The notes: generated by a model not told the origin, from the letters alone. A stretch of 64,000 nt of DNA from Pseudomonadota bacterium (GCA_039028775.1 JBCCHL010000002.1:44-64043); one strand, 5' to 3'. Shown: positions 47,805-64,000, counted from the first letter of the stretch. Numbers and translations: made by a program.

Positions 47805-49034
47805 TTAGACAGTGCGCGTCGCCACCGCAGGTGAGACCCGACAAGCATGTCGTGCGGGGCCGTACACCGCCAACTGGCCGATGAGCAGCAAGCCGAGCAT
47901 GCCCAGCGGAACCCCAACCCAATCGATCTTCGGGAAGCTCATGGCATCCACCAGTACGATATTCAAGCCAACGGTCATGACCGCTCCCAGTACCACGCCC
48001 GCGCCGGTGATCATCGCGTTCTCGACCAGAAAGTAGCGCAGCACGTCACTCTGGGTTGCGCCGAGGGCGCGCCGTGTGCCGATTTGTTTAGTACGGCGCC
48101 GCACGCTGAAACTCGCCAGCCCGAGCACCCCGACGGCGGTGATGAACAGCAACACGGTCATCACCGCGATAAGTAGTTTCGACAATCCTTCGTCCAGCCG
48201 ATAGGACTGCTCCCGGGTCTCGCCCATCGAGCGCATGTTCATCACTATGCGCTGAGCATTGGCATCCGCCAGTCGCGCCTCAATCTCAGGCATCATCGTA
48301 TCGCGTTGTCCCGGTAGCGTGCGCACCAGATAGCGGCTGGAGCCCACCGCCAGCTTCTGCGGGACCAGAGTCACGTGCTCAATGTTGTTCCACTGCACCC
48401 ACGGCGCATGGAGCTTCTTGACCACACCGATGATCTGCTGCGGTTTGGTATTCTCTATGTACACCGTCTGTCCGATCACCGCCTCCGGCGCAAGGTCAGG
48501 GAACATCGACGCCGCGAGGGTCTCGGTGACGATGATCAGGTCCGGCCAGCGACTGGAGTTAGGTGTCCGCCACTGAACATCACTGGCGGCAAAGTTGCGT
48601 CCGGCGACCAGCTCCACCCCCATGGTATCGATCGCCTGCTCATCGACCATGTAGATCGCCGTGCCGTAACTCTGCGTATCCTCACCCGGCTCGACCCTCA
48701 ATCCCATAGACCAGCCGCTGCCGCTCAAGGGGATCGCGTTGGTGGTAATGGCGTTGTGCACCCCTGGCGTGCGGCGCAACAGGTCGAGGTCCTCTTCGAT
48801 GGCCGACTGCGTGTTGAATTGTTCGCCGATACCCACGCTGACGACGTGGAACAACTCATCCTCGACCATGCCGCTGGGTCGCTCCACCAACGCCAACCGC
48901 TCGCTGATCATGTACCAGGAATTCACCACCACCGTCATGGTAAAGGCGATTTGCAGCGCGATGAGGATCGCGCCGATTTTGTTGCGCAACGCCGCGCGGA
49001 TGATCGGACCAAGTTCTATGCGTGACAAATCCAT
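47805..49034 (-). CDS. MacB/FtsX-like ABC permease
   Basis: Large periplasmic loop; VRRRTKQIGTRRALGA; PARHACRVSPA. Confidence 0.9.
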   Translation of the reverse strand: MDLSRIELGPIIRAALRNKIGAILIALQIAFTMTVVVNSWYMISERLALVERPSGMVEDELFHVVSVGIGEQFNTQSAIEEDLDLLRRTPGVHNAITTNAIPLSGSGWSMGLRVEPGEDTQSYGTAIYMVDEQAIDTMGVELVAGRNFAASDVQWRTPNSSRWPDLIIVTETLAASMFPDLAPEAVIGQTVYIENTKPQQIIGVVKKLHAPWVQWNNIEHVTLVPQKLAVGSSRYLVRTLPGQRDTMMPEIEARLADANAQRIVMNMRSMGETREQSYRLDEGLSKLLIAVMTVLLFITAVGVLGLASFSVRRRTKQIGTRRALGATQSDVLRYFLVENAMITGAGVVLGAVMTVGLNIVLVDAMSFPKIDWVGVPLGMLGLLLIGQLAVYGPARHACRVSPAVATRTV

Positions 49035-49041
49035 GCCGGCC

Positions 49042-50355
49042 TCACTGTGATTTCAGTTGCAGCGCGGGCGCGATATTACTCGCCCGCCAGGTTGGATAGA
49101 GTCCCGCCGCTATGCTCGCCAGCACTGCCAGCACGATCGCGGAAGTGACCATTACCCAGTCGAGTTGAACAAATGGCTCTACGAGATTACCCAGCAACAG
49201 CACCAGCCCCTGCAGGCCGAGCCACGTCAGCGCAAGGCCAAGAATGCCACCAACGATACCGATACAAGCCGATTCCACCAGGTACTGCGCAAACAGAGCG
49301 CGCTTGCTGGCGCCCAGCGCACGGCGCAGACCGATCTCAGGGGCCTTACCCAGAAACTTGGATAGCAGCAGACCGATGGTATTGAGCAGACATACCGCCA
49401 GGAACAAGATCGCCACCACCAGCATGATGCGCGCCTCTTCCTGGACCACCTCCTGATTAGCCAACCAATCGTTGACGTCACTCAAGCGATTGTTCAGAGG
49501 ACGCGGGAACCGTCCAAGCGTTTTCTGATCGCGCACATAGTCGTCGAGAAAAGCCAGATACTGCGCTCTGGCCACCGCATCGGGCAGCTCGACCCACATC
49601 TGGACCCAGATACACTCGGAAGCCAGAAATGCCTCGAAGCCGGACTCGTCGTTCGGCTTCCAGCAGTTGGTGTTTCCCGAGCGCGATAGCCGCAGATCGA
49701 TAAGCACGTTGAACGGCACAAATATCTCTTCCACCTGATTGAAAGGCCCGGTGGTGACGTCGTAGAAGCGTGGCATCGGGCGCCATTCGTCCATCACCCC
49801 GATCACCTGGAACAGGTGCCCGCCGAGCCGCACGCTGCGCCCGACAGAGTTCTCACCACCGAACAGACGATCGTTGGTTCGCCGGGACAGGACCGCAACC
49901 AGCTCGCGCTGTTCGTCAGCTTGTTGCGACCAACCCGAGCCGAACAGGAAGGGCACTTCGAACATCGGGAAAAAGTCCGCGTGGGTGGCACGACCGGACG
50001 CGGTAAAGGGTTTGATGTCGCGATCGTCCGGCTCCACCACGTAGGATGCCCCGACACTCGCCACCTGCCGGGGCGCGCGCGCCGCAGCCATGAGGGCCAT
50101 GGCATCGGTGTAGGTCAACTGGTCCGGTGGCTCATTCGGTTCGTCGAAAGGAGAATTGGGATCCCAACTGTCCACCTGCACGTAGAGGAGTTGACCGCTC
50201 TTGTTCGGGATCGGATCGCTCCCCATCACATAGTTGACCGTCACGATGGTCATACAGACGCCGATGCCCAAACCGATGGCCGCGATCATCAAAGCTGAAA
50301 GTACCCAGTTGCCGCGAATGCTGATCGCGGCCAAACGGAAATAGTAGCCTAACAT
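49042..50355 (-). CDS. MacB/FtsX-like ABC permease (second)
   Basis: EIGLRRALGAS, YPTWRASNIAP. Confidence 0.9.
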   Translation of the reverse strand: MLGYYFRLAAISIRGNWVLSALMIAAIGLGIGVCMTIVTVNYVMGSDPIPNKSGQLLYVQVDSWDPNSPFDEPNEPPDQLTYTDAMALMAAARAPRQVASVGASYVVEPDDRDIKPFTASGRATHADFFPMFEVPFLFGSGWSQQADEQRELVAVLSRRTNDRLFGGENSVGRSVRLGGHLFQVIGVMDEWRPMPRFYDVTTGPFNQVEEIFVPFNVLIDLRLSRSGNTNCWKPNDESGFEAFLASECIWVQMWVELPDAVARAQYLAFLDDYVRDQKTLGRFPRPLNNRLSDVNDWLANQEVVQEEARIMLVVAILFLAVCLLNTIGLLLSKFLGKAPEIGLRRALGASKRALFAQYLVESACIGIVGGILGLALTWLGLQGLVLLLGNLVEPFVQLDWVMVTSAIVLAVLASIAAGLYPTWRASNIAPALQLKSQ

Positions 50356-50356
50356 G

Positions 50357-51058
50357 TCAGCTCACCCGCCGATGCGCGCGCGCGGCGCCGGTTTCCTGCA
50401 GCTCGACGCGGCCATCTTTCAGGCGCACCAGCTTCGGGGTCTTGGCAGCCAACTCCAAATCGTGGGTGACCATCACGATGGTGGCGCCGGCATCGTGCAA
50501 TTGGTGCAGCAACGCCATCACACCATTGGCGGTCGTGCTGTCCAGATTACCGGTGGGTTCGTCCGCGAGCAGGAAGCGCGGCTCCCCAGCGAGGGCGCGC
50601 GCGATGGCGACTCTCTGCTGCTGCCCACCCGACAGTTGGCTGGGGAGGTGTTTGGCCCGCCCGGCAAGTCCAACCATATCCAGCTTGTCCATGATGCGCG
50701 CACGCCTCTCGACAGCGTTGAACCCGCGATAGCGCAGCGGTACGTCGACATTGTCGTAAACGTTCAAGTCGGGGATCAGGTTAAAACTCTGGAAGATAAA
50801 GCCGATCTTTTCGTTGCGCAGCTGCGAGCGGGCGGTGTCCGACAACGCGCGCACATCCTCCCCGTCGAGGTAATAGGCCCCGTCATCAAAGGTCTCCAAC
50901 AAGCCCGCGATGTTCAGAAAAGTGGTCTTGCCGGAACCCGACGGACCCACCACCGCAACAAAGTCGCCTTCGTCGATGGAAAAAGAGATGTCCCGTAACG
51001 CGTGGGTCTGCACACTGTCCGTGCGATAGACCTTGTTCAGTTGCTCCATCTTTAACAT
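50357..51058 (-). CDS. ABC ATP-binding protein (MacB/LolD type)
   Basis: GPSGSGKTT, LSGGQQQRVAIARAL, LADEPTGNLD. Confidence 0.93.
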   Translation of the reverse strand: MLKMEQLNKVYRTDSVQTHALRDISFSIDEGDFVAVVGPSGSGKTTFLNIAGLLETFDDGAYYLDGEDVRALSDTARSQLRNEKIGFIFQSFNLIPDLNVYDNVDVPLRYRGFNAVERRARIMDKLDMVGLAGRAKHLPSQLSGGQQQRVAIARALAGEPRFLLADEPTGNLDSTTANGVMALLHQLHDAGATIVMVTHDLELAAKTPKLVRLKDGRVELQETGAARAHRRVS

Positions 51059-51072
51059 GGCTATGGCTCCGC

Positions 51073-52374
51073 TTAGTCGGTGATAAGAAGGGTGGCGTAT
51101 TCGTCGAAGGTATCGGTGCTGGAAATGATGATCGTGTCGCCGACATTCAGCCCCGACACCACTTCGACCTGATTGAGACTGCGTGCCCCGATGACGATGT
51201 TCTGTCGGGTCGCGACATCGTCCACGACCCGGTAGGCGATACGGCCCCCGCCGGATTCGAGGAACTGTCCCCGAGCTACCAGCAGCACGTCGTCCACCTC
51301 ATCGAGAAGAATGCGCGTCGTCAGGCGCTGATTCTGGCGCAGACCGCCGGGACTGGCGGCGGCGAAGCGCAGCCGCAACGTCACCTGATTGTCGATCACC
51401 TCCGGCGATACCGAGACGACGGTGGCGTCAAACACCTGCTGACCGACCCGGACCTGCGCGCCCATACCGATCGCCAGATCGTCCGCATAGCTCTCGGGCG
51501 CTTGGCCCTCCACCTCGAACTGGCTGAGATCGACCACCGACAAGACGGCCTGATTCCGGGCGACATTAGTTTTCTGATCCACCAGCAGATTGCCCACGTT
51601 GCCAGACACCGGTGAGCGCAACGTAAGCTCCGCCACCTGGCGTTCGAGGTCGGCGACCAGCAGGCTCTGCTGATCAACTTCCAGTTGCTTGGTGCGCTGT
51701 TCAAACTCAAGGCGTTCGCGATTGAGCGCCTGATCGGATACTGCATGGCTGTGCGCGTACTGAGCGGACTCCAGCTCATCCTGGGCCTTCTCGTAGTCAA
51801 GCTGCGAGATTGCCTCCTTCGCGAACGCTTCCACCGCGCGACGCGATTCGCGGTCGGCCGCCGTCAGTTGCAGTTTGGCCAGATCGACCGTTTTCTGATT
51901 GGCGAGGTTTTCCTGCTTGGTTTGGATGACAAAGCGCTCGTACCCGACCTGACGCTGGGCGAGGACCGCCTGTTCCTGGGCGAGGCGATTGGTCAATTCC
52001 GGACTGTCGATCTGTGCCAGGGGATCACCCTCTCCCACCTCGTCACCGGAGGCGACCAGATAGGTGATCGTACCGGTATCCGCGGCGTACAAAGTCGGGC
52101 TGACCGCAGCGACCACCCGCCCCTGCACCGAAAGATCGCGAACCAAATCGCCACGCTGCACAGTCGCGAGGCGTAAGCGATCCCGAGATATAGAATCTTC
52201 CGCCGCGGCCCAACGCAAAAGGTCGGGCACCCACCAGAAGAGCAGCGCCACCAGGAGGAGTGCCACCCCTATGTACAGATAGCGCCGCGGTGAGGCGCTG
52301 GGAACCACGAGCTCGTCTTGCGCCGAGGTATCGGCAATGCGCAGGGTTTGGTCCCGCTGCGGCTCTGGCTGCAT
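51073..52374 (-). CDS. HlyD/MacA-like periplasmic adaptor
   Basis: N-terminal TM helix, long coiled coil, LRSPVSG; in operon with the ABC exporter. Confidence 0.88.
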   Translation of the reverse strand: MQPEPQRDQTLRIADTSAQDELVVPSASPRRYLYIGVALLLVALLFWWVPDLLRWAAAEDSISRDRLRLATVQRGDLVRDLSVQGRVVAAVSPTLYAADTGTITYLVASGDEVGEGDPLAQIDSPELTNRLAQEQAVLAQRQVGYERFVIQTKQENLANQKTVDLAKLQLTAADRESRRAVEAFAKEAISQLDYEKAQDELESAQYAHSHAVSDQALNRERLEFEQRTKQLEVDQQSLLVADLERQVAELTLRSPVSGNVGNLLVDQKTNVARNQAVLSVVDLSQFEVEGQAPESYADDLAIGMGAQVRVGQQVFDATVVSVSPEVIDNQVTLRLRFAAASPGGLRQNQRLTTRILLDEVDDVLLVARGQFLESGGGRIAYRVVDDVATRQNIVIGARSLNQVEVVSGLNVGDTIIISSTDTFDEYATLLITD

Positions 52375-52656
52375 AACTGCTTATCCTTCTGGCACTGTGT
52401 ATTCTTGAACGTGTCCCCTTAAAGACGCAGCTGCGCGCAAAATAGTTTGCCCGAAGATGGGTTGTTTTTGCGCGGCGACCAGTCGTGAATGCGGGCTGGC
52501 CGCACGGACCTGCGCGTTTCGTTCGGGTACATATTCGGTGCAGCTCAAAGCGGCCGCTCTACCATCCGCCCCACCCCTCCCTCGCGATGCAACGAGCACC
52601 TGCACTAGCTGCGTTGCGATCGGAATGAACCTAGCAACTTTTCGGCAGCAGCATTT

Positions 52657-52675
52657 GTTAATGCGAATACATATC
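52657..52675. promoter_or_regulatory. Putative Fur box
   Basis: GTTAATGCGAATACATATC matches 13/19 of GATAATGATAATCATTATC; 43 bp upstream of the TBDR ATG. Confidence 0.55.
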
Positions 52676-52717
52676 TTTATCATTTGCACCCCTTTTATTT
52701 CCAACAAAAGTACAAAA

Positions 52718-54997
52718 ATGAAGAGTCACTACACCTCTCTACTCGGGATAACGCTTGCATTAAGCCTCTTGGCCGCACCTTCCTATGCGAACGACGATGA
52801 CATTCCACAAATCGAAGAAGTGGTTGTGATCGGCACCAAGGTAGGCAAATCTGTTCAGGACACACCCAATAGCGTGGCCGTAATCGATGCTCAGATCCTC
52901 GATGATGAGAACATTCTCAACCTGGTCGACATCCTCTACCGCACCGCTAACGTGCTCCCCACCGGCGGCGGTACCGGCTTCTCGATCCGCGGTGTCAACA
53001 GCACCAGCGTGGCCGGCGGCGGCTTTGCCGATCTCGCCACCATCTACCTGGACAATGCCCCACTCTCACGCGATACCACGCAGATCGGCGCGGTCGATGC
53101 CTGGGATCTGGCCCAGGTGGAAGTGTTGCGCGGCCCACAATCCACCCTGCAGGGACGTAATTCTCTGGGGGGTGCGATCATCATGCAGACCACCCAACCC
53201 TCCTATGAATGGAATGCCCGGGCTCGCTATCAAGTGCTCGATGAGATCGACGAGACACGTATCGGTATCGCTTTTGGCGGGCCGATTCTCGAAGACCAAC
53301 TGGCGTTCCGCATCGCCTACGAAGACCGGGAATCTGACGGTCTGATCGATAACCCCACCCGCAACGAAGACGCGGGCGCGGGAGAATCCGATATGCTGCG
53401 CCTGAAGCTGCTGATCGAACCGGAGGCGATCCCCGGTCTGAGCGTGAATCTCAGCCACACCATCGACGATCGTCTGTTCGGTATGCGCGAGTCATTCTTT
53501 GAAGCACCCAGCAGTTGGGACGATCGCATCATCCTGAGCAATCGCCCCACCACGGACGAAGCCGAAACGAAAATCTCCGTGCTCGACCTGAACTATGAGA
53601 TCAACGATGTCTTCGACGTCACCTGGATCTCCACGTTGCAGGACAGCGATCGTGCGCGCCAACGCGACCTTGACTTCGACCCCACCGACGTACAGTTCGG
53701 CAGCTTTGTCAGCCAGACGGACACCACCACCCACGAGCTACGGCTGGGCATCAACATGGACAACTTCTACGGTGTCGTCGGCCTCTACAGCTCTGAGGTG
53801 GACAACCCGGAAAGTGTGTTCGACATCAACTTCTTCTTCGATGTGTTGACCGACTTGAACCTGGTCGGTGTCTTGGTCGGCAACTTCGGCCTGGACGTGC
53901 CGACGGCCACCTTCATCGGCTCCTTCTACACAGACCCATTCATTCTGCAGGCACGTCAGGATCTGCCGAGCGAGGTCAGCACCCAAGCCATCTTCGGTGA
54001 CTTCACCTGGGAGTTGAACGAGCATTGGTCTGTACTGGCCGGCTTCCGCTACGACAACGAAGAGCAGGACATCTCCAATACTCAGCTCGTCACGGTCGAA
54101 TCTGAGTTTCCTGATCCGGCCGCCTTCCCGCCCACGCTGGCGCCGGTGATCGCTGCGGTCAACGGCTTCCTGCAGGCTGAGGCGGACCGCGCCAATACGC
54201 CGGGACAGGTGTCGGACACGGACATCAGTCAGTTCCTGCCGAAGCTCGGGGTGAGCTACCACATCGACGACTCTCAGACCTTGAGCTTTATCGTGCAGAA
54301 GGGTTACCGCTCGGGGGGTGTCGGCACCAACACTGCCCGTGCCTCCGTGACCCAGTACGACGAAGAGGTAACCTGGAACTACGAGATCTCATACCGCAGT
54401 CAATGGCTAGACAACCGTCTGACCGTAAATGGCAACCTCTACTACACGGATTGGGAAGATCAACAGGTCCTGGTCTATCTGAGTTCAAACGTCTTCGACA
54501 ACGAGATACAAAACGCGGGCAAGAGTGAGTTGTTGGGCATCGAACTGGAGACCAACTACATCGTAGATGAGAATCTGAGCTTTTACTTCACCGCAGCGCA
54601 TACTCAGACCGAGTTCAAAGAGTTCAATGCGCTGGTCGACGGTGGTGTAGAGGACCTCAGCGGCAACGAGTTTCCCAACGCACCACCCTGGACATTCTCA
54701 GCGGGAGGTACCTGGACCCATCCGGATGGATGGTTCGTCAACGTCAGCGCCAGCCATAGCGCGCATTACTTCAATACGGCCATCGACTTCCAGGACGACG
54801 GGCCTACCCTTCCGGAGCGCACGCTGGTAAACCTGAAGGCGGGCTGGCGCAATGACAATATCGGCGTCTACCTGATCGGTCGTAATATCTTTGATGACGA
54901 GTACTACGACAGCAAGTTCATCGACGATTTCGGCCGCGAATACGGGCGCTACGGCGAACCCCAGATCTTCGGTCTTTCCATCGAAGGCAGCCTTTAG
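52718..54997 (+). CDS. TonB-dependent receptor, FyuA-like (putative ferric-siderophore)
   Basis: ATG 52718 with signal peptide; EEVVVIGTK; QVEVLRGPQSTLQGRNSLGGAI; Fur-like box upstream. Confidence 0.88.
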   Translation: MKSHYTSLLGITLALSLLAAPSYANDDDIPQIEEVVVIGTKVGKSVQDTPNSVAVIDAQILDDENILNLVDILYRTANVLPTGGGTGFSIRGVNSTSVAGGGFADLATIYLDNAPLSRDTTQIGAVDAWDLAQVEVLRGPQSTLQGRNSLGGAIIMQTTQPSYEWNARARYQVLDEIDETRIGIAFGGPILEDQLAFRIAYEDRESDGLIDNPTRNEDAGAGESDMLRLKLLIEPEAIPGLSVNLSHTIDDRLFGMRESFFEAPSSWDDRIILSNRPTTDEAETKISVLDLNYEINDVFDVTWISTLQDSDRARQRDLDFDPTDVQFGSFVSQTDTTTHELRLGINMDNFYGVVGLYSSEVDNPESVFDINFFFDVLTDLNLVGVLVGNFGLDVPTATFIGSFYTDPFILQARQDLPSEVSTQAIFGDFTWELNEHWSVLAGFRYDNEEQDISNTQLVTVESEFPDPAAFPPTLAPVIAAVNGFLQAEADRANTPGQVSDTDISQFLPKLGVSYHIDDSQTLSFIVQKGYRSGGVGTNTARASVTQYDEEVTWNYEISYRSQWLDNRLTVNGNLYYTDWEDQQVLVYLSSNVFDNEIQNAGKSELLGIELETNYIVDENLSFYFTAAHTQTEFKEFNALVDGGVEDLSGNEFPNAPPWTFSAGGTWTHPDGWFVNVSASHSAHYFNTAIDFQDDGPTLPERTLVNLKAGWRNDNIGVYLIGRNIFDDEYYDSKFIDDFGREYGRYGEPQIFGLSIEGSL

Positions 54998-55008
54998 CCG
55001 CTTGTGAT

Positions 55009-55034
55009 AATGTGGGCGGAGACCCGCCCACATT
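55009..55034. other. Perfect 11-bp hairpin without U-tract after the TBDR stop
   Basis: AATGTGGGCGG-AGAC-CCGCCCACATT, flanked by TTGTGA/TCACAA (55002-55045). Confidence 0.75.
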
Positions 55035-55067
55035 GCCCCTCACAAATAAGCGCACGCGGAGATTTCG

Positions 55068-55493
55068 ATGCCACAGTCTATGGAGCCAGCGACCTTTGAT
55101 GCCTTTTTGGACAGCAAGCCAGGCTGGATCGTACTGACCACCATCGATGGAGATGGATTCCCGCACAGCGTCCCGTTGGGGTACTTTCGCGACGGAGACC
55201 GCGTGTACTGCGGCGTGCGCGATCACACCCAGAAGATCCGCAACATCGAAAAGAATCCAAAAGTCTCACTGATGGTCGAAGCCGGCAGCACCATGCAGGA
55301 TATCAAAGGTGCCATGATCCAAGGCGTAGCGACCATCCATCGCGAGCCTGAATCCGTGCTGCGACTCATGCGCCTGGGCGCCAGCGCTCGCGGGGTGGCG
55401 GAAGCAGACCTGCCAACCGCGGCCAATCCGGGTTCGGCGTTTATCGAGGTTGCCGTGCACCGACGCATCTCCTGGGATTACGGCGCACCCTGA
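55068..55493 (+). CDS. Pyridoxamine 5'-phosphate oxidase-like (FMN/F420 split-barrel) protein
   Basis: VLTTIDGDGFPHSVP, QKIRNIEKNPKVSLMVE, SWDY. Confidence 0.8.
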   Translation: MPQSMEPATFDAFLDSKPGWIVLTTIDGDGFPHSVPLGYFRDGDRVYCGVRDHTQKIRNIEKNPKVSLMVEAGSTMQDIKGAMIQGVATIHREPESVLRLMRLGASARGVAEADLPTAANPGSAFIEVAVHRRISWDYGAP

Positions 55494-55560
55494 TCGCTCC
55501 AGCGTCCCCCTGGGCGAAGAGTTCTAACACCTGCTCACCCACCTCGGCTAACATGACGCG

Positions 55561-56127
55561 ATGTCGCCGCCGCTTACCACCGCCTTGCTCGCCACCCTCA
55601 CCTGCGCCGTGGCGCTGGGCCTGATCCACGCCGCCTGGCGGGATACCGGAGCCCGTACCCGCACCTTTGCGGTGCTCGGCTGGGGCGGCGTCGCCCTGGC
55701 CGGTTTTCTGTTCAGCAACGCCTGGGGCAGCGAGGTGGGTTGGGTGACCGGCTGCTTGGTCGTGGCGCTGTGCGCCTGGGTGGGAGTGATGTTCGAAGCA
55801 ACCCCTCGGTCCGTCAGGGCGGGGCACCCCCGAGAGGCGCTGCGCAGCTTGGCCTTCACCCACCTCGCGCGCAACGTTGGCCTGTTCCTGATGGCCGTCC
55901 CTTTGAGCGCCTTCGTCAGCGTGCTGCTGGTGGTCAGCGCCTCTGCGTTCTGGGGGTTTGCCATCGATAACCGCCTGGTGCTGGTCATGTTGATCACACC
56001 GGCGATCTGGGGGGTGCTGATGGCCTGGGTGCTGATCGATCGCAACCGGCTGCGCAGCAGCGGAGCGTTGGTCGGTATCGCTGTGGTGAGCGGCGCGCTG
56101 CTCTGGCTGCAACGTCTTACCGGATAG
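55561..56127 (+). CDS. Integral membrane protein typical of PepSY iron-uptake operons (DUF3325/DUF3649-like halves)
   Basis: About six hydrophobic helices; directly upstream of the PepSY-TM gene. Confidence 0.6.
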   Translation: MSPPLTTALLATLTCAVALGLIHAAWRDTGARTRTFAVLGWGGVALAGFLFSNAWGSEVGWVTGCLVVALCAWVGVMFEATPRSVRAGHPREALRSLAFTHLARNVGLFLMAVPLSAFVSVLLVVSASAFWGFAIDNRLVLVMLITPAIWGVLMAWVLIDRNRLRSSGALVGIAVVSGALLWLQRLTG

Positions 56128-56131
56128 GTCT

Positions 56132-57592
56132 GTGCTGTCTACCGATCTGATCAAGAATGCTCTGAGCGCACACTCCTGGTTGGGATTGGCCATCGGCGCG
56201 GGTATGTACCTCGTGTGCCTGAGCGGCGCGATCCTGACCTTCAGCGCCGAGTTGGAACAGTGGGAACAAGCCGACACACCCGTCGTCACCAGCCTCGATA
56301 TCCAGGCGGCGACTGGTACGTTTAACCGCTTTGTTGCCGCCGATCAGGGCGTCACCCCACATATGTACCTTGTGCTGCCCACCTCAGCTTCGCCCAAGGC
56401 GCGCCTTGCCACAGAAGAAACCAGTTGGTTTTTAAACGCGGATGGCAGCCTCGGGCCGCAAGAGGACAACAGTTGGACCAGCATGCTCATCGACCTGCAC
56501 TACTACCTGCATCTGCCCAAGAGCTGGGGTATGGCGGTCGTCAGCGCCCTGGGTTCGGTACTGGTGGCGCTCATCATCACCGGCTTGCTGGCCCACCCCG
56601 GCATCTTGCGCGACGCGTTTCGGCTGCGCCGCAATAGTTCCAGACAGCTGTTCGACACCGATCTACACAATCGCCTGAGCGTCTGGGCCAGTCCTTTCCA
56701 CCTGATGATCGCCGTCACCGGCGCGTGGTTCGCCTTTGCGGTACCCCTGATCACCATCGTCGCCGACGTCGAACAGAGAGCCACCCCCGAGGCTCTGGTG
56801 GCAGAGGTGTTCGGCGCTGAACCGGAACTCGCGCCCGCTACGGGCGAAGCGGATCTGGTCGCCGCCCTGACCCAAACCCAACAGATGGCACCTGATAGCG
56901 AGCCGTTCGTGATCATCGTCCACGATGCCGGCACGCCGCGCGCCCACATCGGCGTCTCGGCCCGCCACCCGGGTCGCCTGATCTGGGCTGAGAACTACCT
57001 CTTCACCCTGGACGGAAAGTTCCTGCGCACGGACCACTGGCACGACGGCAGCGCAGGCCGCCAGATGGTCTACAGCATTTATCGCCTGCATTTCGGGACC
57101 TTCGCGGGTATGGGCATGCAACTGCTGTATCTGGTGATGGGCCTGGCGCTGAGCGTGATCGCCGCCAGTGGGGTCAACATCTGGCTGAGCAAACGCCGCC
57201 GGGAAGACGCGTGGGGCGACCTGTGGGTCGCCCTCGTCTGGGGCACCCCCATCGCGCTGGCAGGGGCGGCCATCGCCCGGTTCTCTGCCGTTCCAATATC
57301 GATGGCGGCCGTGTTCTGGAGCGTGTTGGCCGCCTGCGCTGTCTGCACCCTGGCGTTGACCGACATCACCCGCAGCCGCGCCTGGCTGCGCGTTGCGACC
57401 AGCGCAAGTATCGCACTGCTGCTCGTTGTGCATCTATGGCGCTTCGGGACCTCTGGTCTGACCGGCAAACCGGGCCTGATCAATCTTGGACTCGTGCTCG
57501 CATTGCTCGCGACCGTTCGTCTATCAGTTAATAGCTATCAACAGCTGACCACCAACAAAAGTCACCAACCAGAAGCCACCGGAGAAGTTTAA
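56132..57592 (+). CDS. PepSY-associated TM protein (FoxB/PiuB-like ferric-siderophore reductase family)
   Basis: AHSWLGL...SGA, LIDLHYYLHLP, DLHNRLSVWASPFHLMIAVTG, IYRLHFGTFAG. Confidence 0.88.
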   Translation: MLSTDLIKNALSAHSWLGLAIGAGMYLVCLSGAILTFSAELEQWEQADTPVVTSLDIQAATGTFNRFVAADQGVTPHMYLVLPTSASPKARLATEETSWFLNADGSLGPQEDNSWTSMLIDLHYYLHLPKSWGMAVVSALGSVLVALIITGLLAHPGILRDAFRLRRNSSRQLFDTDLHNRLSVWASPFHLMIAVTGAWFAFAVPLITIVADVEQRATPEALVAEVFGAEPELAPATGEADLVAALTQTQQMAPDSEPFVIIVHDAGTPRAHIGVSARHPGRLIWAENYLFTLDGKFLRTDHWHDGSAGRQMVYSIYRLHFGTFAGMGMQLLYLVMGLALSVIAASGVNIWLSKRRREDAWGDLWVALVWGTPIALAGAAIARFSAVPISMAAVFWSVLAACAVCTLALTDITRSRAWLRVATSASIALLLVVHLWRFGTSGLTGKPGLINLGLVLALLATVRLSVNSYQQLTTNKSHQPEATGEV

Positions 57593-57593
57593 C

Positions 57594-58814
57594 GTGGGCA
57601 AGAAAGTCATCGTCATCGCACTGATCATCATCGCGCTGACCGTCATCCTTGCGCTGGTGTTTCGCAGTGAGATCGGCCGGCTGCAGTATCAGACCTCGCT
57701 CTTCACCGGCGCGCCGCAGCATGAAAATTTCGACCGCCAGGATGAGTTTTATCCGGTCAATCGCATGGCCGCATCGACCACACCTTTCAGCTTCCCGAGC
57801 GGGCCGCCGCTGACCCTACCGGAGACGTTCAGCCACGACGACAACCGTCTCGACGTCGCGGAGTTTCTGACCACCACCGATACCGCGGCGCTGCTGATCC
57901 TGCAGGATGGCAAGCTGGTGTACGAAAACTACTTTCTCAACGGTGGCCCTTCCGTCGCCTGGCTGACCCATTCCATATCCAAGAGCCTGGTCGCTACAGC
58001 CGTGGCGTTTACCCTGCAGGACGGCCTGCTGGCCAGTCTGGAGGACAAGGCCTCGGCCTACCTGCCCACTCTGGCGGGTAGCGGCTACGCTGAGGTGACC
58101 GTGAAACAGCTGTTGCAGATGTCCTCCGGTGTACGCTGGAACGAGGACTACGCGGATCGGGAATCGGACCTCAATCAATTTGGCGTGACGATCCTGACCG
58201 GCGCTTCCTATGATGAATTTGTCACCACCGTGCAGGGCGAGCGCGAACCGGGCAGCTATCACCGCTATACCGGCATGGACAGCCAAGTACTGTCGATGCT
58301 GGTGCGCGCTATCACACGGCAGACGCTGGCCGCCTATCTACACGGCAAACTATGGCAGCCCCTGGGTATGCAGGACGAGGCTTACTGGAGTACCGATCGC
58401 CACCATGCGGAATTAGGCCTCGGCGGCTTGAGCGCATCCGCCCGCGACCTTGCCAAGGTCGGCGAATTGTATCGCCGCCGCGGTCGCTGGGGTGAAGAAC
58501 AGATTCTTAATCCGCAGTTTGTGGAAGCCGCCACCACCGTTACCAATCCCCTGTTGATCCGTGGCGATCATCCACAATCCGCACATCGTATGGGGTACGG
58601 CTACCACTGGTGGCTGCCAGACGGTGACGCCCAGGACTACGCCGCGATCGGTATCTACAATCAGTTCATCTATGTGAACCCGCAATACCGGGCGGTCATC
58701 GTCAAACTGTCGGCCTATCGGGACTACGCCAATCTCGAATCCGATATGCCGTACCCAGAAGCACCAACGTTTTCGTTGTTCCGACACATCACCGTCAATC
58801 TGCCCGCGTACTAG
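57594..58814 (+). CDS. Beta-lactamase-fold serine hydrolase (AmpC/NylB-like) with N-terminal anchor
   Basis: HSISKS (SxxK), YTGMDS, YGYHWW, AIGIYNQFIYVNP. Confidence 0.85.
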   Translation: MGKKVIVIALIIIALTVILALVFRSEIGRLQYQTSLFTGAPQHENFDRQDEFYPVNRMAASTTPFSFPSGPPLTLPETFSHDDNRLDVAEFLTTTDTAALLILQDGKLVYENYFLNGGPSVAWLTHSISKSLVATAVAFTLQDGLLASLEDKASAYLPTLAGSGYAEVTVKQLLQMSSGVRWNEDYADRESDLNQFGVTILTGASYDEFVTTVQGEREPGSYHRYTGMDSQVLSMLVRAITRQTLAAYLHGKLWQPLGMQDEAYWSTDRHHAELGLGGLSASARDLAKVGELYRRRGRWGEEQILNPQFVEAATTVTNPLLIRGDHPQSAHRMGYGYHWWLPDGDAQDYAAIGIYNQFIYVNPQYRAVIVKLSAYRDYANLESDMPYPEAPTFSLFRHITVNLPAY

Positions 58815-58905
58815 CCAGGATTGCCTGCATTCTCACTCTGCAGCAGGCCGGACTGCGCTGCCGCTGTCGCCCGCAAGAGGGTTGGTGCCTCGCGCAATGT
58901 CATTA

Positions 58906-58924
58906 GTTATTGCGAATCATTCTC
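58906..58924. promoter_or_regulatory. Putative Fur box
   Basis: GTTATTGCGAATCATTCTC matches 14/19 of the consensus; 21 bp upstream of the first ABC gene. Confidence 0.7.
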
Positions 58925-58944
58925 ATTTCTAATATAACGGTCGC

Positions 58945-60768
58945 ATGTCTGAACAAGTGACCGAACCCGGCGCCATCGGTGCCCAAGAACCGGCCGCCAA
59001 CGCCCCAAAGGAGTCCGTTGGCGGCGGGATCAAAGCCCTGCTGCCGTTCGCGCGCCCGCTGCGCGGGCGCTTGCTGCTGAGCGGCGCCATCGCCGTGGTC
59101 GCCGCCTTGTTGGGACTGGTGCCTTACTGGGTGGTCTATCAGACCGCCGTTACCCTGGTGAGCGCTACCGACACCGCCCTCGCCGGGCTCTGGCCTCTGG
59201 CCTTCATCGCGCTCGGCGCCGTGGTCATCCGCTTCCTGCTGGACGGCATCTCCACCTACATCGCACACATGGCCGCGTTCGAGATACAGTACGGTATCCG
59301 TGTGAGCCTGGCCGAACACCTCGCGCGCATGCCATTGGGCTTTACCAACCGTCGGCGCTCCGGTGAGATCAAGAAAATCATGGGTGATGACGTCGAGCGC
59401 CTGGAGCTCTTTCTCGCCCACGCGATCCCCGACCTGACCGCCGCTATCGTGACCTTCTTCGGCCTGCTCGGCTGGATGATCTGGGTCGACTGGCGCATGG
59501 CGCTGGCGGTCTTTGGCCTGGTTATCCCGGCCTTTGGTTCGATCGCTTACGCGATGCGCAGCGCCGGCAGCCACATGGGAGAGTACAAGCAGACCCAGGG
59601 CGAGATGAACGCGGCGATCGTCGAACTTATTCGCGGCATGGCCGTGGTCAAGACCTTTAACCGCGATGCAGACGAGGTGCGCGGCACCGAGCGGATGATC
59701 TCCCGCTACGTCAATGTGGTGAGAGAATACAGCCTGATCTTCCTGCCGTTCGGCACCGCCTTCTACGTGCTGCTCGGCGCCAATATCCTGTTGATCCTGC
59801 CGGTCGGGGGCTGGTTGTGGAGCACGGGCTCCTTGAGCACGGAAGCGCTTTTGTTTTTCCTGATCGTCGGCCTTGGCGCGCTGGGTACGTTCGTCACCCT
59901 GTTGTTTCTTTTCGCGAACCTCTCACACATCGCCTCGGGCGGCAAGTTGGTCACCGAGATTCTCGAACAAGCAACCCTCTCGGACGGCGCGACAAACAGT
60001 AGCACCCGACCGGAAGATGCTACCGTCACGTTCAACAATGTGTCGTTCCGTTACGAAGACGACTGGGTATTGCGCAACATCAGCTTCAGCGCCCCCAGCG
60101 GCGAACTCACAGCCCTGGTCGGACCGTCCGGCGGGGGCAAGAGCACCATCGCGGCACTCATCGGCCGGTTCTGGGATGTCGATGAAGGTTTCATCGACCT
60201 CGGCGGGGTCATGCTGCGGGACGTTCCAAACGACGTTCTCAGCAGTCACGTCTCGATGGTATTGCAGGAGACATTCCTGTTCGACGACACCATCGCGAAC
60301 AATCTAAGGGTGGGTAAGCCGGATGCGACCCAAGCCGAAATCGAAGCGGCGGCGCGCAAAGCGCACATCCATGACACGATCTGCGCGTTCGACGCCGGTT
60401 ACGCCACCCGGGTCGGCGAGCACGGCGTGCGCCTCTCCGGCGGCGAGCAGCAGCGTCTGACAATCGCACGTGCGATCCTTCACGACGCCCCGGTGATCGT
60501 GCTGGATGAGGCCACTGCCTTCGTCGATCCGGAGAACGAACGGCTGCTGCAGGCCGCGATCAGCGAACTGGTACGCGGTAAGACCGTCATCATGATCGCC
60601 CACCGTCTCACCACCATCGCCGGCGCAGACGCCATTCTTGTCATCGACGACGGGCAAATTGTCGAGCGCGGCCGCCACACCGAGTTGGTCGAACAAGACG
60701 GGTTGTACGCACGTCTCTGGGCCGATTTCAACGCGGCGGATGCCATCGCGATAGGAGGCCAGACATGA
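58945..60768 (+). CDS. ABC transporter fused permease/ATPase, YbtP/IrtA-like
   Basis: DDVERLELFLAHAIPD, GPSGGGKST, LSGGEQQRLTIARAIL, LDEATAFVDPENE; no N-terminal FAD siderophore-interaction domain. Confidence 0.85.
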   Translation: MSEQVTEPGAIGAQEPAANAPKESVGGGIKALLPFARPLRGRLLLSGAIAVVAALLGLVPYWVVYQTAVTLVSATDTALAGLWPLAFIALGAVVIRFLLDGISTYIAHMAAFEIQYGIRVSLAEHLARMPLGFTNRRRSGEIKKIMGDDVERLELFLAHAIPDLTAAIVTFFGLLGWMIWVDWRMALAVFGLVIPAFGSIAYAMRSAGSHMGEYKQTQGEMNAAIVELIRGMAVVKTFNRDADEVRGTERMISRYVNVVREYSLIFLPFGTAFYVLLGANILLILPVGGWLWSTGSLSTEALLFFLIVGLGALGTFVTLLFLFANLSHIASGGKLVTEILEQATLSDGATNSSTRPEDATVTFNNVSFRYEDDWVLRNISFSAPSGELTALVGPSGGGKSTIAALIGRFWDVDEGFIDLGGVMLRDVPNDVLSSHVSMVLQETFLFDDTIANNLRVGKPDATQAEIEAAARKAHIHDTICAFDAGYATRVGEHGVRLSGGEQQRLTIARAILHDAPVIVLDEATAFVDPENERLLQAAISELVRGKTVIMIAHRLTTIAGADAILVIDDGQIVERGRHTELVEQDGLYARLWADFNAADAIAIGGQT

Positions 60769-62540
60769 GCGAAGCCACACCCGAAGCGACAAGTTTCCGC
60801 CAGCGCTCCACCCTGCGTACCATCTGGCGCCTGAGCGGAGACCAGCAGAGTGTCTTGATCCGTTCGGTCGGTTTCAAAGCGCTGCAGGCGGCCTGCGAGG
60901 CCGCACCCGCCGCGATCCTCGTGTATGTCATCAACGAACTGCGACTCGCGTCGCTCACCACGAATGAACTGTTCGTGTGCGTCACCATTGTCGTGGCCTG
61001 TGTGATCGGTCAGTGGTTTGCCGGCTACGTCGCCAACAGGTCGGCGTGGATCGCAACCTATGAACTGTTCGGCCACCTACGCGCACGCATGCTCAACCAC
61101 GTGCGCAGGCTACCGATGGCGTTTCATGACCAGGAGCGCACCGGCAACGTGGTCACGGTCATGACCCAGGACGTCAGCGCGGTCGAAAATTTCACCCACG
61201 AGCCCATGCAGATGATGATCGGCGCAGTCACCGCGCCAATCATCGTTTTCATCGTGCTGGCCTTTCAGGACATGGCGATGGCCACCGCCACCCTGACCAG
61301 TGTGCTCCTGGCGCTGCCGGCATTCCTGTGGAGTAACCACGTGTTCCTGAAGCTCGCCAACCGGCGTGCCGAGGTGCAGGCCGATGCCTCGAGTCGCATG
61401 ATCGAATATGTGCAGGGCTTGGCGGTCATCCGCGCTTTCGGTCTGGCCGGAGAACGCCTCGGGCTGTTCCGCGACTCCCTGGCATCTTTCCGCGATATCA
61501 ACAGCGAGATGGCGCAACGCCTAGCACCGTTAGGGTCCTTGTTTTTGTCCGTGGTTTTCCTCGGCATCCCGCTGATCCTGTTCGCGGGCACCTACTGGCT
61601 GCTCGGCGGCAAGATCGATGCGGCGGTGTTTCTGATCTTCGCCGTGCTTTCGCTGCGGGTATACCTGCCCCTGATCTCCGCCACCCAGGGCTTCGAGAGC
61701 CTGCGTCTGGCAGACGCCTCCCTCAATCGCATCGCCGCGTTGATGGATCGACCGCTGGAAGGCACCTCCGTACAGACCGTGGCAAGCCCCGCCCATCATG
61801 ACGTGACCTTCGAACAGGTCAGCTTTGCCTATAACAGCGGCGAAGAGGTCCTGCACGACGTCAGCTTCACGGCACATCAGGGTCAGGTCACCGCCATTGT
61901 CGGACCGTCAGGGGCCGGCAAATCCACCGTCCTGCAACTCATCGCCGGGCTGCGCTATCCAGATGAGGGTACGCTGCAGATCGGCGGTATCGACCAGCAC
62001 CGGCTCACCCCGGCGCAACTGTTCGATGCCGTCACCCCCGTGTTCCAAGACATCTACCTGTTCCCCGGCACGATCTATGACAACATCGCGTTCGGTCGGG
62101 AAAACGCACCCCAGGAAGATGTTGTGGCCGCCGCCCAACTCGCCCAGGTGGATGCGTTTGTCAGCAAGCTTCCCGACGGCTACAAGACGGTCATCCAGGA
62201 AGCAGGCGCCAACCTCTCCGGCGGCGAGCGTCAGCGCATCGCCATCGCTCGCGCGATCCTGAAGGACGCCCCCATCGTGCTGCTGGACGAGGTGACTTCA
62301 GCACTGGATGCGAGCAACGAACGGCTGGTGCAGGAGGCGTTGGCACAGTTGGTACGCAACAAGACTGTGATCGTCATCGCCCACCGCCTTGCCACGATTC
62401 GACAAGCGGACAATATCGTTGTGCTGCGCGACGGTGCCGTCGTACAACAAGGTCAGCACGATATGCTGCTGGAACAGCCGGGTCTATACAGCGAACTTTG
62501 GGCCTCCAGAGAAGCTGCAGCGGCTTGGAGCATTCGTTGA
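60765..62540 (+). CDS. ABC transporter fused permease/ATPase, YbtQ/IrtB-like
   Basis: GPSGAGKST, LSGGERQRIAIARAILKDAPIVLLDE; overlaps the partner gene (ATGA). Confidence 0.85.
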   Translation: MSEATPEATSFRQRSTLRTIWRLSGDQQSVLIRSVGFKALQAACEAAPAAILVYVINELRLASLTTNELFVCVTIVVACVIGQWFAGYVANRSAWIATYELFGHLRARMLNHVRRLPMAFHDQERTGNVVTVMTQDVSAVENFTHEPMQMMIGAVTAPIIVFIVLAFQDMAMATATLTSVLLALPAFLWSNHVFLKLANRRAEVQADASSRMIEYVQGLAVIRAFGLAGERLGLFRDSLASFRDINSEMAQRLAPLGSLFLSVVFLGIPLILFAGTYWLLGGKIDAAVFLIFAVLSLRVYLPLISATQGFESLRLADASLNRIAALMDRPLEGTSVQTVASPAHHDVTFEQVSFAYNSGEEVLHDVSFTAHQGQVTAIVGPSGAGKSTVLQLIAGLRYPDEGTLQIGGIDQHRLTPAQLFDAVTPVFQDIYLFPGTIYDNIAFGRENAPQEDVVAAAQLAQVDAFVSKLPDGYKTVIQEAGANLSGGERQRIAIARAILKDAPIVLLDEVTSALDASNERLVQEALAQLVRNKTVIVIAHRLATIRQADNIVVLRDGAVVQQGQHDMLLEQPGLYSELWASREAAAAWSIR

Positions 62541-62648
62541 CAAGGAAAGTCCGGACCATCACGCCCGTTTCAGTGTAGACCCCATAGATTGTATTGCCAG
62601 AGACACTGGGCAATACTCGAACGCCGGGAGAGTCAGACATCTAACGGC

Positions 62649-63986
62649 ATGGTCACAGCAACCGACCATACATCCACCGAGGCGGAGATAAACCGAATCA
62701 TCGACCACGGCGGTTTCAACCGTCGTCAGGTTGCGCTGGTGGCGATGTGCATGCTGTTCAACCTACTGGACGGCTTCGACATCACCGCCATGGCCGTGGT
62801 CGCGAACCCCGTGGGTGAAGAACTGGGGCTGGGCGCCGATCGATTGGGCTGGCTGTTCAGCGCTGCACTGGCGGGCATGATGGCGGGGGCGATGTTGCTG
62901 GCCCCGTTATCGGATCGCTATGGGCGCCGCCTGGTGGTGATTGTCGCCCTGGGTGTGGTCGCTTGCGCGGTGCTGCTGATCGCCGTCACGTCCAACCTGG
63001 CAGGTCTGGTGTTCCTGCGCTTCATCAGTGGCTGCGGTGCAGGCGCCATCCTCGCCAGCCAAGCCGCGCTTGCGGCAGAGTACAGCCCGCCTAAGTTCCG
63101 CGCCGCCATCGTCGCGATCGTCACTTCAGGCTACCCACTGGGCGCCATGTCGACCTCGCTGGTGGCGCAGTGGCTGTTGCCCGAGTACGGCTGGCGCAGC
63201 ATGTTTATCTTCGGCGGCGTCCTGACCCTGCTGATGAGCGTGATCGCGATCACCTCGCTCCCCGAATCGATCCGCTTTCTGCTGGTGCAACAGCCTGCCA
63301 ATGCCCTGGCCCGAGTGAACGCAACGCTGCAACGATTCCGTAAGCCTGCGCTCGACCGACTACCAGCGCCACCCGCGACCGTGCACGATGGCCCCGAGAA
63401 CTTCCTACGCGTCCTCCTCGGGGCAAGCTACCGTCGCCAGACCCTGTTTCTGTGGAGCGCTTTTTTCATGTGCGTGAGCACCCTGTACTTCCTGCAGAGT
63501 TGGATTCCCAAGCTGGTCGAGGACAGCGGCTTCAGTGCGGCCGATGGCCGCAGCGCGTTCTTCCTGTTCAACTTTGGTGGGGTCTGCGGGATCTACCTGA
63601 TGAGCGCTCTCTCCACCCGTTGGTCGCTGAACAGTCTGATCGCACAGTTCGCGATCTTAGCTGGCATCAGCATGATGCTGTTCGCCAACGTGGAGGGCGA
63701 TCGACTGGTGATCGCCGCATTGATCCTGGTGGTCGGCATCCTCCAACAGGGCGCGTTCACCGGCCTGTACCCCGCCGCCGCGGCGGTATACCCCACCAGG
63801 GTACGCAGCGCGGGCATCGGTTGGGCCATAGGCCTGGGACGTTTCGGGGCGGTGGTCGGACCCGCGCTGGCCGGTTATCTCATCGCCGCAGGCTTCGGCC
63901 TATCTTTCAACTTCTTCGTCTTCGCCATCCCGATGTTTATCGGCGCTTTGCTCGCCTACCGGCTAATCCTGCAATCTCCAACTTAG
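62649..63986 (+). CDS. MFS aromatic acid:H+ symporter (PcaK/BenK-like)
   Basis: LDGFDITAM, PLSDRYGRR, AEYSPPKFRA, LPESIRFL, YPTRVRSAGIGWAIGLGRFG; ATG 62649. Confidence 0.88.
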   Translation: MVTATDHTSTEAEINRIIDHGGFNRRQVALVAMCMLFNLLDGFDITAMAVVANPVGEELGLGADRLGWLFSAALAGMMAGAMLLAPLSDRYGRRLVVIVALGVVACAVLLIAVTSNLAGLVFLRFISGCGAGAILASQAALAAEYSPPKFRAAIVAIVTSGYPLGAMSTSLVAQWLLPEYGWRSMFIFGGVLTLLMSVIAITSLPESIRFLLVQQPANALARVNATLQRFRKPALDRLPAPPATVHDGPENFLRVLLGASYRRQTLFLWSAFFMCVSTLYFLQSWIPKLVEDSGFSAADGRSAFFLFNFGGVCGIYLMSALSTRWSLNSLIAQFAILAGISMMLFANVEGDRLVIAALILVVGILQQGAFTGLYPAAAAVYPTRVRSAGIGWAIGLGRFGAVVGPALAGYLIAAGFGLSFNFFVFAIPMFIGALLAYRLILQSPT

Positions 63987-64000
63987 AGCAGACCCATGAG

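Follow-up and report, generated by a model that had tools for sequence, protein, structure and literature searches.

Many marine and soil bacteria without siderophores of their own live on those of others, and what becomes of the foreign ligand is mostly unknown. IroE, PfeE and Cee are siderophore esterases of the periplasm with an alpha/beta-hydrolase fold, and their substrates are catecholate trilactones. To our knowledge, the known periplasmic siderophore hydrolases are all alpha/beta-fold esterases for such trilactones, and the PIB-1/NylB branch of serine hydrolases is so far known only for the hydrolysis of carbapenems and nylon oligomers. For iron uptake, the closest described systems are hiuABC of Caulobacter crescentus and FoxA-FoxB of Pseudomonas aeruginosa, in which a receptor gene is followed by one for a PepSY_TM protein, together with the exporter-fold half-transporters YbtPQ and IrtAB. 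Caulobacter, in particular, is a scavenger of foreign chelators that has no siderophore of its own (PMC12424826). The DNA analyzed here comprises 64,000 nucleotides of one strand from a Pseudomonadota bacterium (GCA_039028775.1 JBCCHL010000002.1:44-64043), hereafter the window, which contains near its 3′ end a locus where genes of both kinds are found together with a gene for a serine hydrolase of the beta-lactamase fold.

This locus is probably a Fur-repressed island devoted to the acquisition of iron from the chelators of other organisms, formed by two known kinds of module and one unstudied enzyme. What is new here is a clade of PIB-1/NylB-like hydrolases that occur with iron-uptake genes, and a smaller point is an apparently fused protein that is probably an accessory of the putative PepSY_TM reductase.

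Gene organization and predicted iron control

Listing of the open reading frames (ORFs), together with Pfam and NCBIfam scans, located eight genes, all in the plus strand, at 52718-63986, as they had first been placed, and thus confirmed the seven co-oriented genes downstream of a TonB-dependent receptor reported in an earlier, sequence-only reading of the same DNA. The first five genes, from the receptor to the hydrolase, are separated by gaps of 70, 67, 4 and 1 bp, the hydrolase starting at a GTG codon 1 bp past the stop of the PepSY_TM gene. A longer gap of 130 bp, which contains a Fur-like box, precedes two genes for ATP-binding cassette (ABC) half-transporters that overlap by 4 bp, and the last gene, for a transporter of the major facilitator superfamily (MFS), follows after 48-108 bp. 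As read from this arrangement, the iron-related genes form two units, each headed by a predicted iron box: unit 1 extends from the receptor to the hydrolase (52657-58814) and unit 2 comprises the ABC pair (58906-62540).

Fur-like box 1 (52657-52675, plus strand) matches the 19-bp Fur consensus in 13 positions and is located 43 bp upstream of the ATG of the receptor gene, where it overlaps a -35/-10-like pair (TTGTTA-17-TATCAT, 52655-52683, 35-60 bp before the same ATG), whereas Fur-like box 2 (58906-58924, plus strand) matches the consensus in 14 of 19 positions and lies 20 bp before the ATG of the first ABC gene. Both boxes start with GTTA(A/T)TGCGAAT, a motif present at exactly two sites of the 64-kb window, 52657 and 58906. 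Shuffling gave an expectation of 0.34 for this 12-mer, with two or more matches in 3 of 100 shuffles, a test both weak and circular that was therefore replaced by scoring against the Fur consensus, genome-wide and at orthologous promoters. The host genome (4.43 Mb, 95.8% complete) contains 25 sites with at least 14 of the 19 positions, box 2 among them, and 199 with at least 13, and it encodes a Fur protein (139 bits). Similar boxes precede the orthologues of the receptor, with 13 of 19 matches for the one of 71% identity (locus L119) and 14 of 19 for those of 54% (L088) and 59% (L120). The same holds for the ABC genes, since a 15/19 box heads a SIP-Fur-MFS-ABC operon (L102; SIP, siderophore-interacting protein) in the same-genus genome G009, and boxes of 12-13 matches precede the ABC pairs of three other loci (L088, L003 and L103). 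Three of the 25 best sites in the host genome are near an ORF for a TonB-dependent receptor or a PepSY protein, against about 0.5 expected, a suggestive figure that was not used as support. Altogether, control of the two units by Fur, and hence by iron, which had been proposed from the shared start of the boxes, is well supported as a prediction of binding sites by the consensus matches, the orthologous promoters and the presence of a Fur gene.

The sequence-only reading had also noticed the lack of genes for nonribosomal peptide synthetases (NRPS) and NRPS-independent siderophore synthetases in the window, and had suggested piracy. This observation now extends to the whole genome, at its stated completeness, where neither the NRPS condensation domain (PF00668) nor the IucA/IucC domain (PF04183) gave any match. 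The same genome carries at least 26 ORFs for TonB receptors and 5-6 PepSY_TM genes, and its gene content supports piracy of foreign chelators rather than production of an own siderophore.

An iron-linked clade of PIB-1/NylB-like hydrolases

The last gene of unit 1 (57594-58814, plus strand; PF00144) encodes a predicted membrane-anchored protein that, by its fold, SxxK motif and tyrosine, is a PIB-1/NylB-like serine hydrolase related to class C beta-lactamases. Its Ser127-x-x-Lys130 motif and Tyr225 do not vary across 30 homologues, and the AlphaFold model (predicted local distance difference test, pLDDT, 93.8) shows an N-terminal helix at residues 2-22. The best structural match is PIB-1 of P. 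aeruginosa (8RLJ; sequence E 1.3e-47, TM score 0.83, 29% identity), and the next ones are 6-aminohexanoate-dimer hydrolases of the NylB type. PIB-1 is reported to be an atypical class C enzyme that hydrolyses carbapenems and whose N-terminus is extended by about 80 residues (bioRxiv 10.1101/2024.03.05.583521). If the enzyme does act on siderophores, its kinship with NylB would make aliphatic hydroxamate oligomers of the ferrioxamine kind possible substrates. Its nearest characterized relatives speak against the aryl-capped (salicylate or catechol) siderophore previously put forward as the substrate.

The wider family of this hydrolase is large and widespread, with 584 confirmed relatives of 37-46% identity in hundreds of species from many phyla. 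Among its loci of at least 15 kb, none shows a PepSY_TM or YbtPQ-like gene nearby and 2 of 47 show a receptor, a count in which the receptor and PepSY profiles were those built from the loci of the clade described below. For the close relatives (at least 50% identity), 9 out of 11 genomic contexts contain a TonB-dependent receptor, a PepSY_TM gene, a YbtPQ-like pair or an SIP gene within 10 kb. A receptor and a PepSY_TM gene accompany the hydrolase in the window itself, with the YbtPQ-like pair, in L001, with SIP and ChuX/HutX genes, and in L110, with DUF3325; L086 has PepSY_TM and DUF3325. The YbtPQ-like pair is found in L003 (62-63% identical to that of the window), next to DUF2470 and an RhtX/FptX-like MFS gene, and in L088, next to the receptor orthologue of 54% identity. 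The remaining iron-linked contexts are those of L087 (genome G010), with a receptor, L112, a Fur island with three receptors and TonB-ExbBD, and L129 (genome G009), with SIP and Glyoxalase_3 genes. The other two, L089 and L111, have no iron genes.

In a rapid IQ-TREE analysis of 69 rows, carried out without the duplicates L002 and L004, loci shorter than 12 kb and L129, seven iron-linked rows group in one clade (SH-aLRT 100) nested in a clade of 10 (SH-aLRT 99), eight of which are iron-linked and two are not. Moreover, hydrolases of this clade (59-62% identity) and orthologues of the ABC pair (70-75% identity) co-occur in the same three same-genus genomes, G009, G010 and G012, out of the 24 (G001-G024) that were searched with both; the search with the hydrolase covered 60 genomes and that with the ABC pair these 24. 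The host genome also keeps a paralogue of the wide family (37% identity), which suggests that the clade copy is specialized. The varied neighbourhoods of the clade hydrolases argue for a functional tie to iron uptake, and the genuine linkage of this subclade with iron-uptake genes, as judged from the tree and the gene contexts, is supported, in agreement with the place that the hydrolase had originally been given among the iron genes.

These same data bear on the idea that the hydrolase has a role in the cell envelope unrelated to iron, acting for instance on peptidoglycan fragments or lipids, and that its position is explained by the common descent of a small number of related marine genomes. 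The absence of an iron context in the wider family and the two clade members without iron neighbours would fit such a role, and the hosts of the clade may indeed be kin, in which case their contexts are not independent. However, the neighbourhoods are distinct (receptor plus PepSY_TM, YbtPQ-like pair, SIP plus Glyoxalase_3, Fur island), which points to a repeated association rather than to inherited synteny, and the wide-family paralogue retained in the genome again suggests that the clade copy has specialized, so that an envelope role seems unlikely.

As to its chemistry, the iron-linked clade may tentatively be regarded as a new family of beta-lactamase-fold enzymes that cleave siderophores in the periplasm. 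They would act on foreign siderophores with amide or ester linkages, after which the PepSY_TM reductase could free the iron or the YbtPQ-like pair could import the fragments. Such a function is possible rather than probable. Literature searches found no work linking the beta-lactamase fold of the PIB-1/NylB type to siderophore use, and none joining PepSY, a TonB-dependent receptor, a serine hydrolase and iron.

A protective role is a less favoured proposal for the same enzyme, which would inactivate toxic siderophore mimics, such as sideromycin-like conjugates or molecules of the beta-lactam type, in the periplasm. The closest solved relative does hydrolyse carbapenems (bioRxiv 10.1101/2024.03.05.583521), the hydrolase gene is translationally coupled to uptake genes, and albomycin enters through siderophore routes in a related system (PMC10760861). 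However, the identity with PIB-1 is just 29%, no antibiotic-related gene is present in the locus, and some clade members occur next to cytoplasmic SIP reductases or to ABC pairs without a receptor, a setting that fits iron release better, which makes protection an improbable function.

Genes for Glyoxalase_3 proteins recur next to hydrolases of the iron-linked clade or YbtPQ-like pairs (L001:7795-9893, L088:13221-13985, L103:6360-7127, L112:20250-21233 and L129:11979-13447), often with a NAD_binding_8 protein of about 465 residues or an SIP reductase and in several unrelated arrangements, and look like part of an uncharacterized iron-associated gene set.

The receptor, the putative PepSY_TM reductase and its predicted small partner

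The TonB-dependent receptor (52718-54997, plus strand, 759 residues), with plug and barrel Pfam domains, starts at an ATG that is in frame with a longer ORF from 52457; the start at 52718 gives an N-terminus resembling a signal peptide, and the longer ORF would cross the promoter. The protein scores 152 bits against the siderophore-receptor model TIGR01783 (cut-off 223.5) and 73 bits against the haem model, in both cases below the cut-off. Uptake of haem was considered, since some comparator loci include ChuX/HutX and DUF2470 genes. It was not adopted, given the higher score of the receptor with the siderophore model and the absence of any haem-uptake gene from the 64-kb window. Among solved structures the best match is FyuA (4EPA), restricted to the plug (residues 50-239, 56 bits, E 1.8e-14), so the earlier description of a FyuA-like receptor does not extend to the full length of the protein. 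The closest orthologue (71% identity), in G009 (L119), is followed by a Coq4-like gene, an ORF of 103 residues, PepSY_TM and DUF3325, a neighbourhood that indicates a conserved core made of the receptor, PepSY_TM and small membrane proteins. An FMO-like flavin monooxygenase gene adjoins this receptor orthologue (L119:8210-9841), and another one adjoins the hydrolase orthologue of L088 (L088:8609-9973).

The second gene (55068-55493, plus strand) encodes a split-barrel protein of 141 residues with the PNPOx fold (PF01243, 56 bits; best structural match Rv2991, E 7e-10) and no signal peptide. The fold agrees with that initially assigned to the gene after the receptor, and proteins with PNPOx or DUF2470 domains recur near the YbtPQ-like pairs of comparator loci.

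The PepSY_TM protein (56132-57592, plus strand) matches PF03929 with 176.4 bits (cut-off 28.8). Its match to FoxB (7ABW) is weak and aligns His14 and His320 with histidines of FoxB, and residues His123, His155, His179 and His320 are invariant in seven homologues. The domain score and the conserved histidines support its assignment to the FoxB/HiuB type, as a putative ferric-chelate reductase that would carry two haems and presumably face the periplasm, in keeping with the FoxB-type reductase already named by the sequence-only reading.

The gene in between (55561-56127, plus strand) encodes a polytopic membrane protein of 188 residues without any Pfam match. A word-based search with this protein found only itself, and no BLAST similarity was detected with the protein of 192 residues encoded at the same position of L001. 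An exhaustive search showed nevertheless that the family is real, with full-length matches in 85 representative clusters of about 180 residues. In profile comparisons, the N-terminal half resembles DUF3325 proteins (E 3.6e-5, probability 71%) and the C-terminal half resembles the product of a second small ORF that flanks the PepSY_TM genes of four comparator loci (E 1.2e-5, probability 81%); the C-terminal half of the Atlas model also resembles a DUF3649 cluster. The protein therefore looks like a fusion of DUF3325-like and DUF3649-like halves, which elsewhere would be encoded by two separate small genes flanking PepSY_TM.

A complex between this protein and the PepSY_TM protein was modelled with scores of 0.86, 0.85 and 0.84 in three runs, the best control reaching 0.00. 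The runs had at least 81% of their contacts in common, and the pLDDT of the partner was at least 79. Of 80 solved complexes, 58 attained the mark used for this score, as did 2 of 110 mismatched pairs, counts that are rough for the alignment of seven rows employed here. These models suggest that the 188-residue protein is probably an accessory subunit that binds the PepSY_TM protein, and the predicted HiuB-HiuC complex offers a published precedent for the association of a PepSY_TM protein with a small partner (PMC12424826).

Upstream of the receptor, the minus strand carries an efflux operon of the MacB type (47805-52374) for an HlyD-like adaptor, an ABC ATPase and two FtsX/MacB permeases, which is divergent from the receptor gene and has a common promoter region with it. 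A possible role of this operon in handling the iron-free ligand would parallel that of PvdRT-OpmQ, a MacB-type pump, with pyoverdine. ExsFGH was rejected as a model for this operon, since it is a resistance-nodulation-division pump and not of the MacB type.

The YbtPQ-like pair and the proposed pathway

The genes of unit 2 encode two exporter-fold ABC half-transporters, ABC1 (58945-60768, plus strand) and ABC2 (60765-62540, plus strand), which are 33% identical to each other. The best match of ABC1 among the half-transporters of the PDB is YbtP (6P6I_A; 381 bits, versus 308 for IrtA and 261 for Sav1866), and that of ABC2 is YbtQ (284 bits, versus 254 for ABCB6 and 248 for IrtB), which bears out the likeness to YbtPQ noted before. 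In G009, the orthologous ABC genes come after genes for an SIP-DUF2470 fusion, a Fur-family protein and a different MFS transporter, with a PNPOx gene nearby, and a Fur gene is transcribed divergently from those of G010. The pair is best interpreted as a putative importer of an iron chelate.

The pair could also export, carrying out the iron-free ligand or its fragments, or the whole island could be devoted to a different metal, for instance copper. Both proteins have an exporter fold and obtain good scores with many exporter families; in addition, PepSY_TM proteins can serve copper, as is the case of the CrpH group, which acts in copper supply (PMC13038864), and a cupredoxin gene adjoins PepSY_TM in one comparator locus. 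However, the importers YbtP, YbtQ and IrtA are clearly the best half-transporter matches, the ABC orthologues sit with Fur-family and SIP genes, and the boxes of both units are of the Fur type and not of a copper type. The Fur boxes and the SIP and Fur neighbours of the orthologues favour iron over copper, and an export or copper function appears very improbable.

Under the preferred explanation, that of an island for iron from foreign chelators, the receptor would bring the ferric chelate into the periplasm, where the di-haem PepSY_TM protein, probably in complex with the 188-residue protein, would reduce the bound iron, as proposed for FoxB and HiuB-HiuC. The hydrolase, translated from the same message, would break an amide or ester linkage in the ligand once imported, or in some related compound that uses the same route. 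In turn, the ABC pair of the YbtPQ/IrtAB type would carry the intact metal chelate into the cytoplasm, where the PNPOx-fold protein may help in the release of iron.

Besides the copper-related PepSY_TM proteins and the hydrolases without iron neighbours already mentioned, several other points weigh against this explanation. The same full set of genes is found in none of the comparator genomes examined, which makes the locus a mosaic, and in the closest relatives, G009 and G010, the receptor-PepSY module, the ABC pair and the hydrolase are on separate contigs. The occurrence of the hydrolase with receptor, PepSY_TM or YbtPQ-like genes does recur in other genomes, but the whole locus is not a conserved combination. 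The genome, at the completeness given above, has no match to FeoB_C, so that, despite its several PepSY_TM reductase genes, an importer for iron reduced in the periplasm is not obvious. Sequence does not reveal which way the ABC pair transports, the periplasmic location of the hydrolase is deduced from a single helix at its N-terminus and by analogy with PIB-1, and the activity of the hydrolase clade is assigned through its genomic association with iron genes.

A second locus of the iron type exists in the same genome (L104, contig C19:8000-26000), with genes for a PepSY_TM protein, a PNPOx-domain protein of 334 residues, a protein of 499 residues, a NAD_binding_8 protein (464 residues), a YbtPQ-like pair, an ICMT/PEMT methyltransferase, another methyltransferase and a TonB receptor. 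Its YbtPQ-like pair is 37-38% identical to that of the window.

The MFS transporter and its downstream genes

The last of the eight genes (62589 or 62649 to 63986, plus strand) encodes an MFS transporter of the aromatic-acid/H+ symporter type. Its scores stay below the cut-offs of the models for named members (354.3 versus 418.55 for TIGR00895, 250 versus 770 for PcaK and 224 versus 410 for MhpT), and on this basis the protein is a relative of the aromatic acid/H+ symporters and not one of their named members. It is followed, 9 bp past its stop, by a glyoxalase-fold (extradiol-dioxygenase-like) gene that starts at 63996 and runs beyond the end of the window, and then by a gene for an MhpA-like hydroxylase dependent on flavin adenine dinucleotide (488 bits; cut-off of the NCBIfam subfamily, 390), located in the contig region L105. 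Convergent to the latter there is a gene for a protein of 1703 residues with many WD40 repeats (L105:2126-7884), and just upstream of this one, in the same strand, a gene for a MarR/helix-turn-helix protein of 220 residues.

In the sequence-only reading, the MFS transporter was proposed to salvage an aryl fragment. In its full form, this proposal describes a pathway for an aryl-capped siderophore, in which the hydrolase would free the cap, the MFS transporter would recover it, and the downstream hydroxylase and dioxygenase could extend the process to degradation of the phenolic fragment. The gene is indeed co-oriented with the iron units, its product belongs to the group of aromatic-acid symporters, no separate regulator adjoins the trio of MFS, dioxygenase-like and hydroxylase genes, and YbtPQ and FyuA are established to serve a salicylate-capped siderophore. 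No terminator was called between ABC2 and the MFS gene, so read-through from unit 2 into the latter is possible. Nevertheless, the best Fur-like match upstream of the MFS gene covers 9 of 19 positions, which is the level of chance, and none of the comparator iron loci contains the MFS, glyoxalase-fold or hydroxylase genes. The phyletic pattern of the MFS gene is also different: among 60 same-genus genomes its orthologue (54% identity) was found in G586 only, and not in the three that carry the ABC and hydrolase orthologues, and there it sits between genes for an acyl-CoA dehydrogenase and an RPE65-type dioxygenase; four homologues of 43-46% identity from the same taxonomic order have none of the window genes nearby. 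For the MhpA-like hydroxylase, a search of 400 genomes of the class gave no match at E 1e-110 or better, a threshold too strict to be informative. Together with the likeness of the receptor to FyuA, limited to the plug, and the nearest characterized relatives of the hydrolase, which cleave aliphatic amides or carbapenems, these observations leave little probability to an aryl-cap pathway. With its extradiol-dioxygenase-like and MhpA-like genes tightly downstream, the MFS gene is most simply read as part of an adjacent unit for the catabolism of phenolic acids, most likely formed by these three genes and probably outside the iron system.

Comparison with known systems

If the hydrolase proves to be a siderophore amidase or esterase with a beta-lactamase fold, it would represent a new class of enzymes in iron piracy and provide a natural role for the PIB-1/NylB branch. 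If it is unrelated to iron, the locus would be no more than two known uptake modules placed next to each other. Either module has a described counterpart, and the locus offers a compact case of periplasmic reduction and cytoplasmic import encoded side by side, where the choice of route can be tested.

Unit 1 is similar to hiuABC of C. crescentus and to FoxA-FoxB of P. aeruginosa in that a receptor gene under predicted Fur control is followed by one for a PepSY_TM protein with conserved transmembrane histidines, in a host without a siderophore of its own. As in hiuABC, the PepSY_TM protein has a small membrane partner by prediction, the likeness to HiuC being one of predicted complex. Here, however, the gene of the small partner precedes that of PepSY_TM and is apparently a fusion of two halves, the resemblance of the receptor to FhuA or FoxA ends with the plug, and genes for a PNPOx-fold protein and a serine hydrolase are inserted. 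Unit 2 resembles YbtPQ of Yersinia and uropathogenic Escherichia coli (6P6I) and IrtAB of mycobacteria (6TEJ) in its adjacent genes for exporter-fold half-transporters, its predicted control by an iron box and the absence of a binding-protein gene from the locus. It differs from them in the lack of biosynthesis genes, of a YbtX-type MFS and of a fused SIP domain, and in that import is a deduction here.

The hydrolase has the same fold as PIB-1 (8RLJ) and NylB (2ZM0), with the SxxK serine and catalytic tyrosine and an N-terminal extension before the catalytic domain, whereas its identity is 29% with the former and about 25% with the latter, and it falls in a clade of its own, found together with iron-uptake genes. 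Finally, in comparison with IroE, PfeE and Cee, no catecholate link was found and the fold is that of beta-lactamases instead of alpha/beta-hydrolases, but the hydrolase of this locus would be, as those esterases are, a periplasmic enzyme co-expressed with a receptor and acting on the imported ligand.

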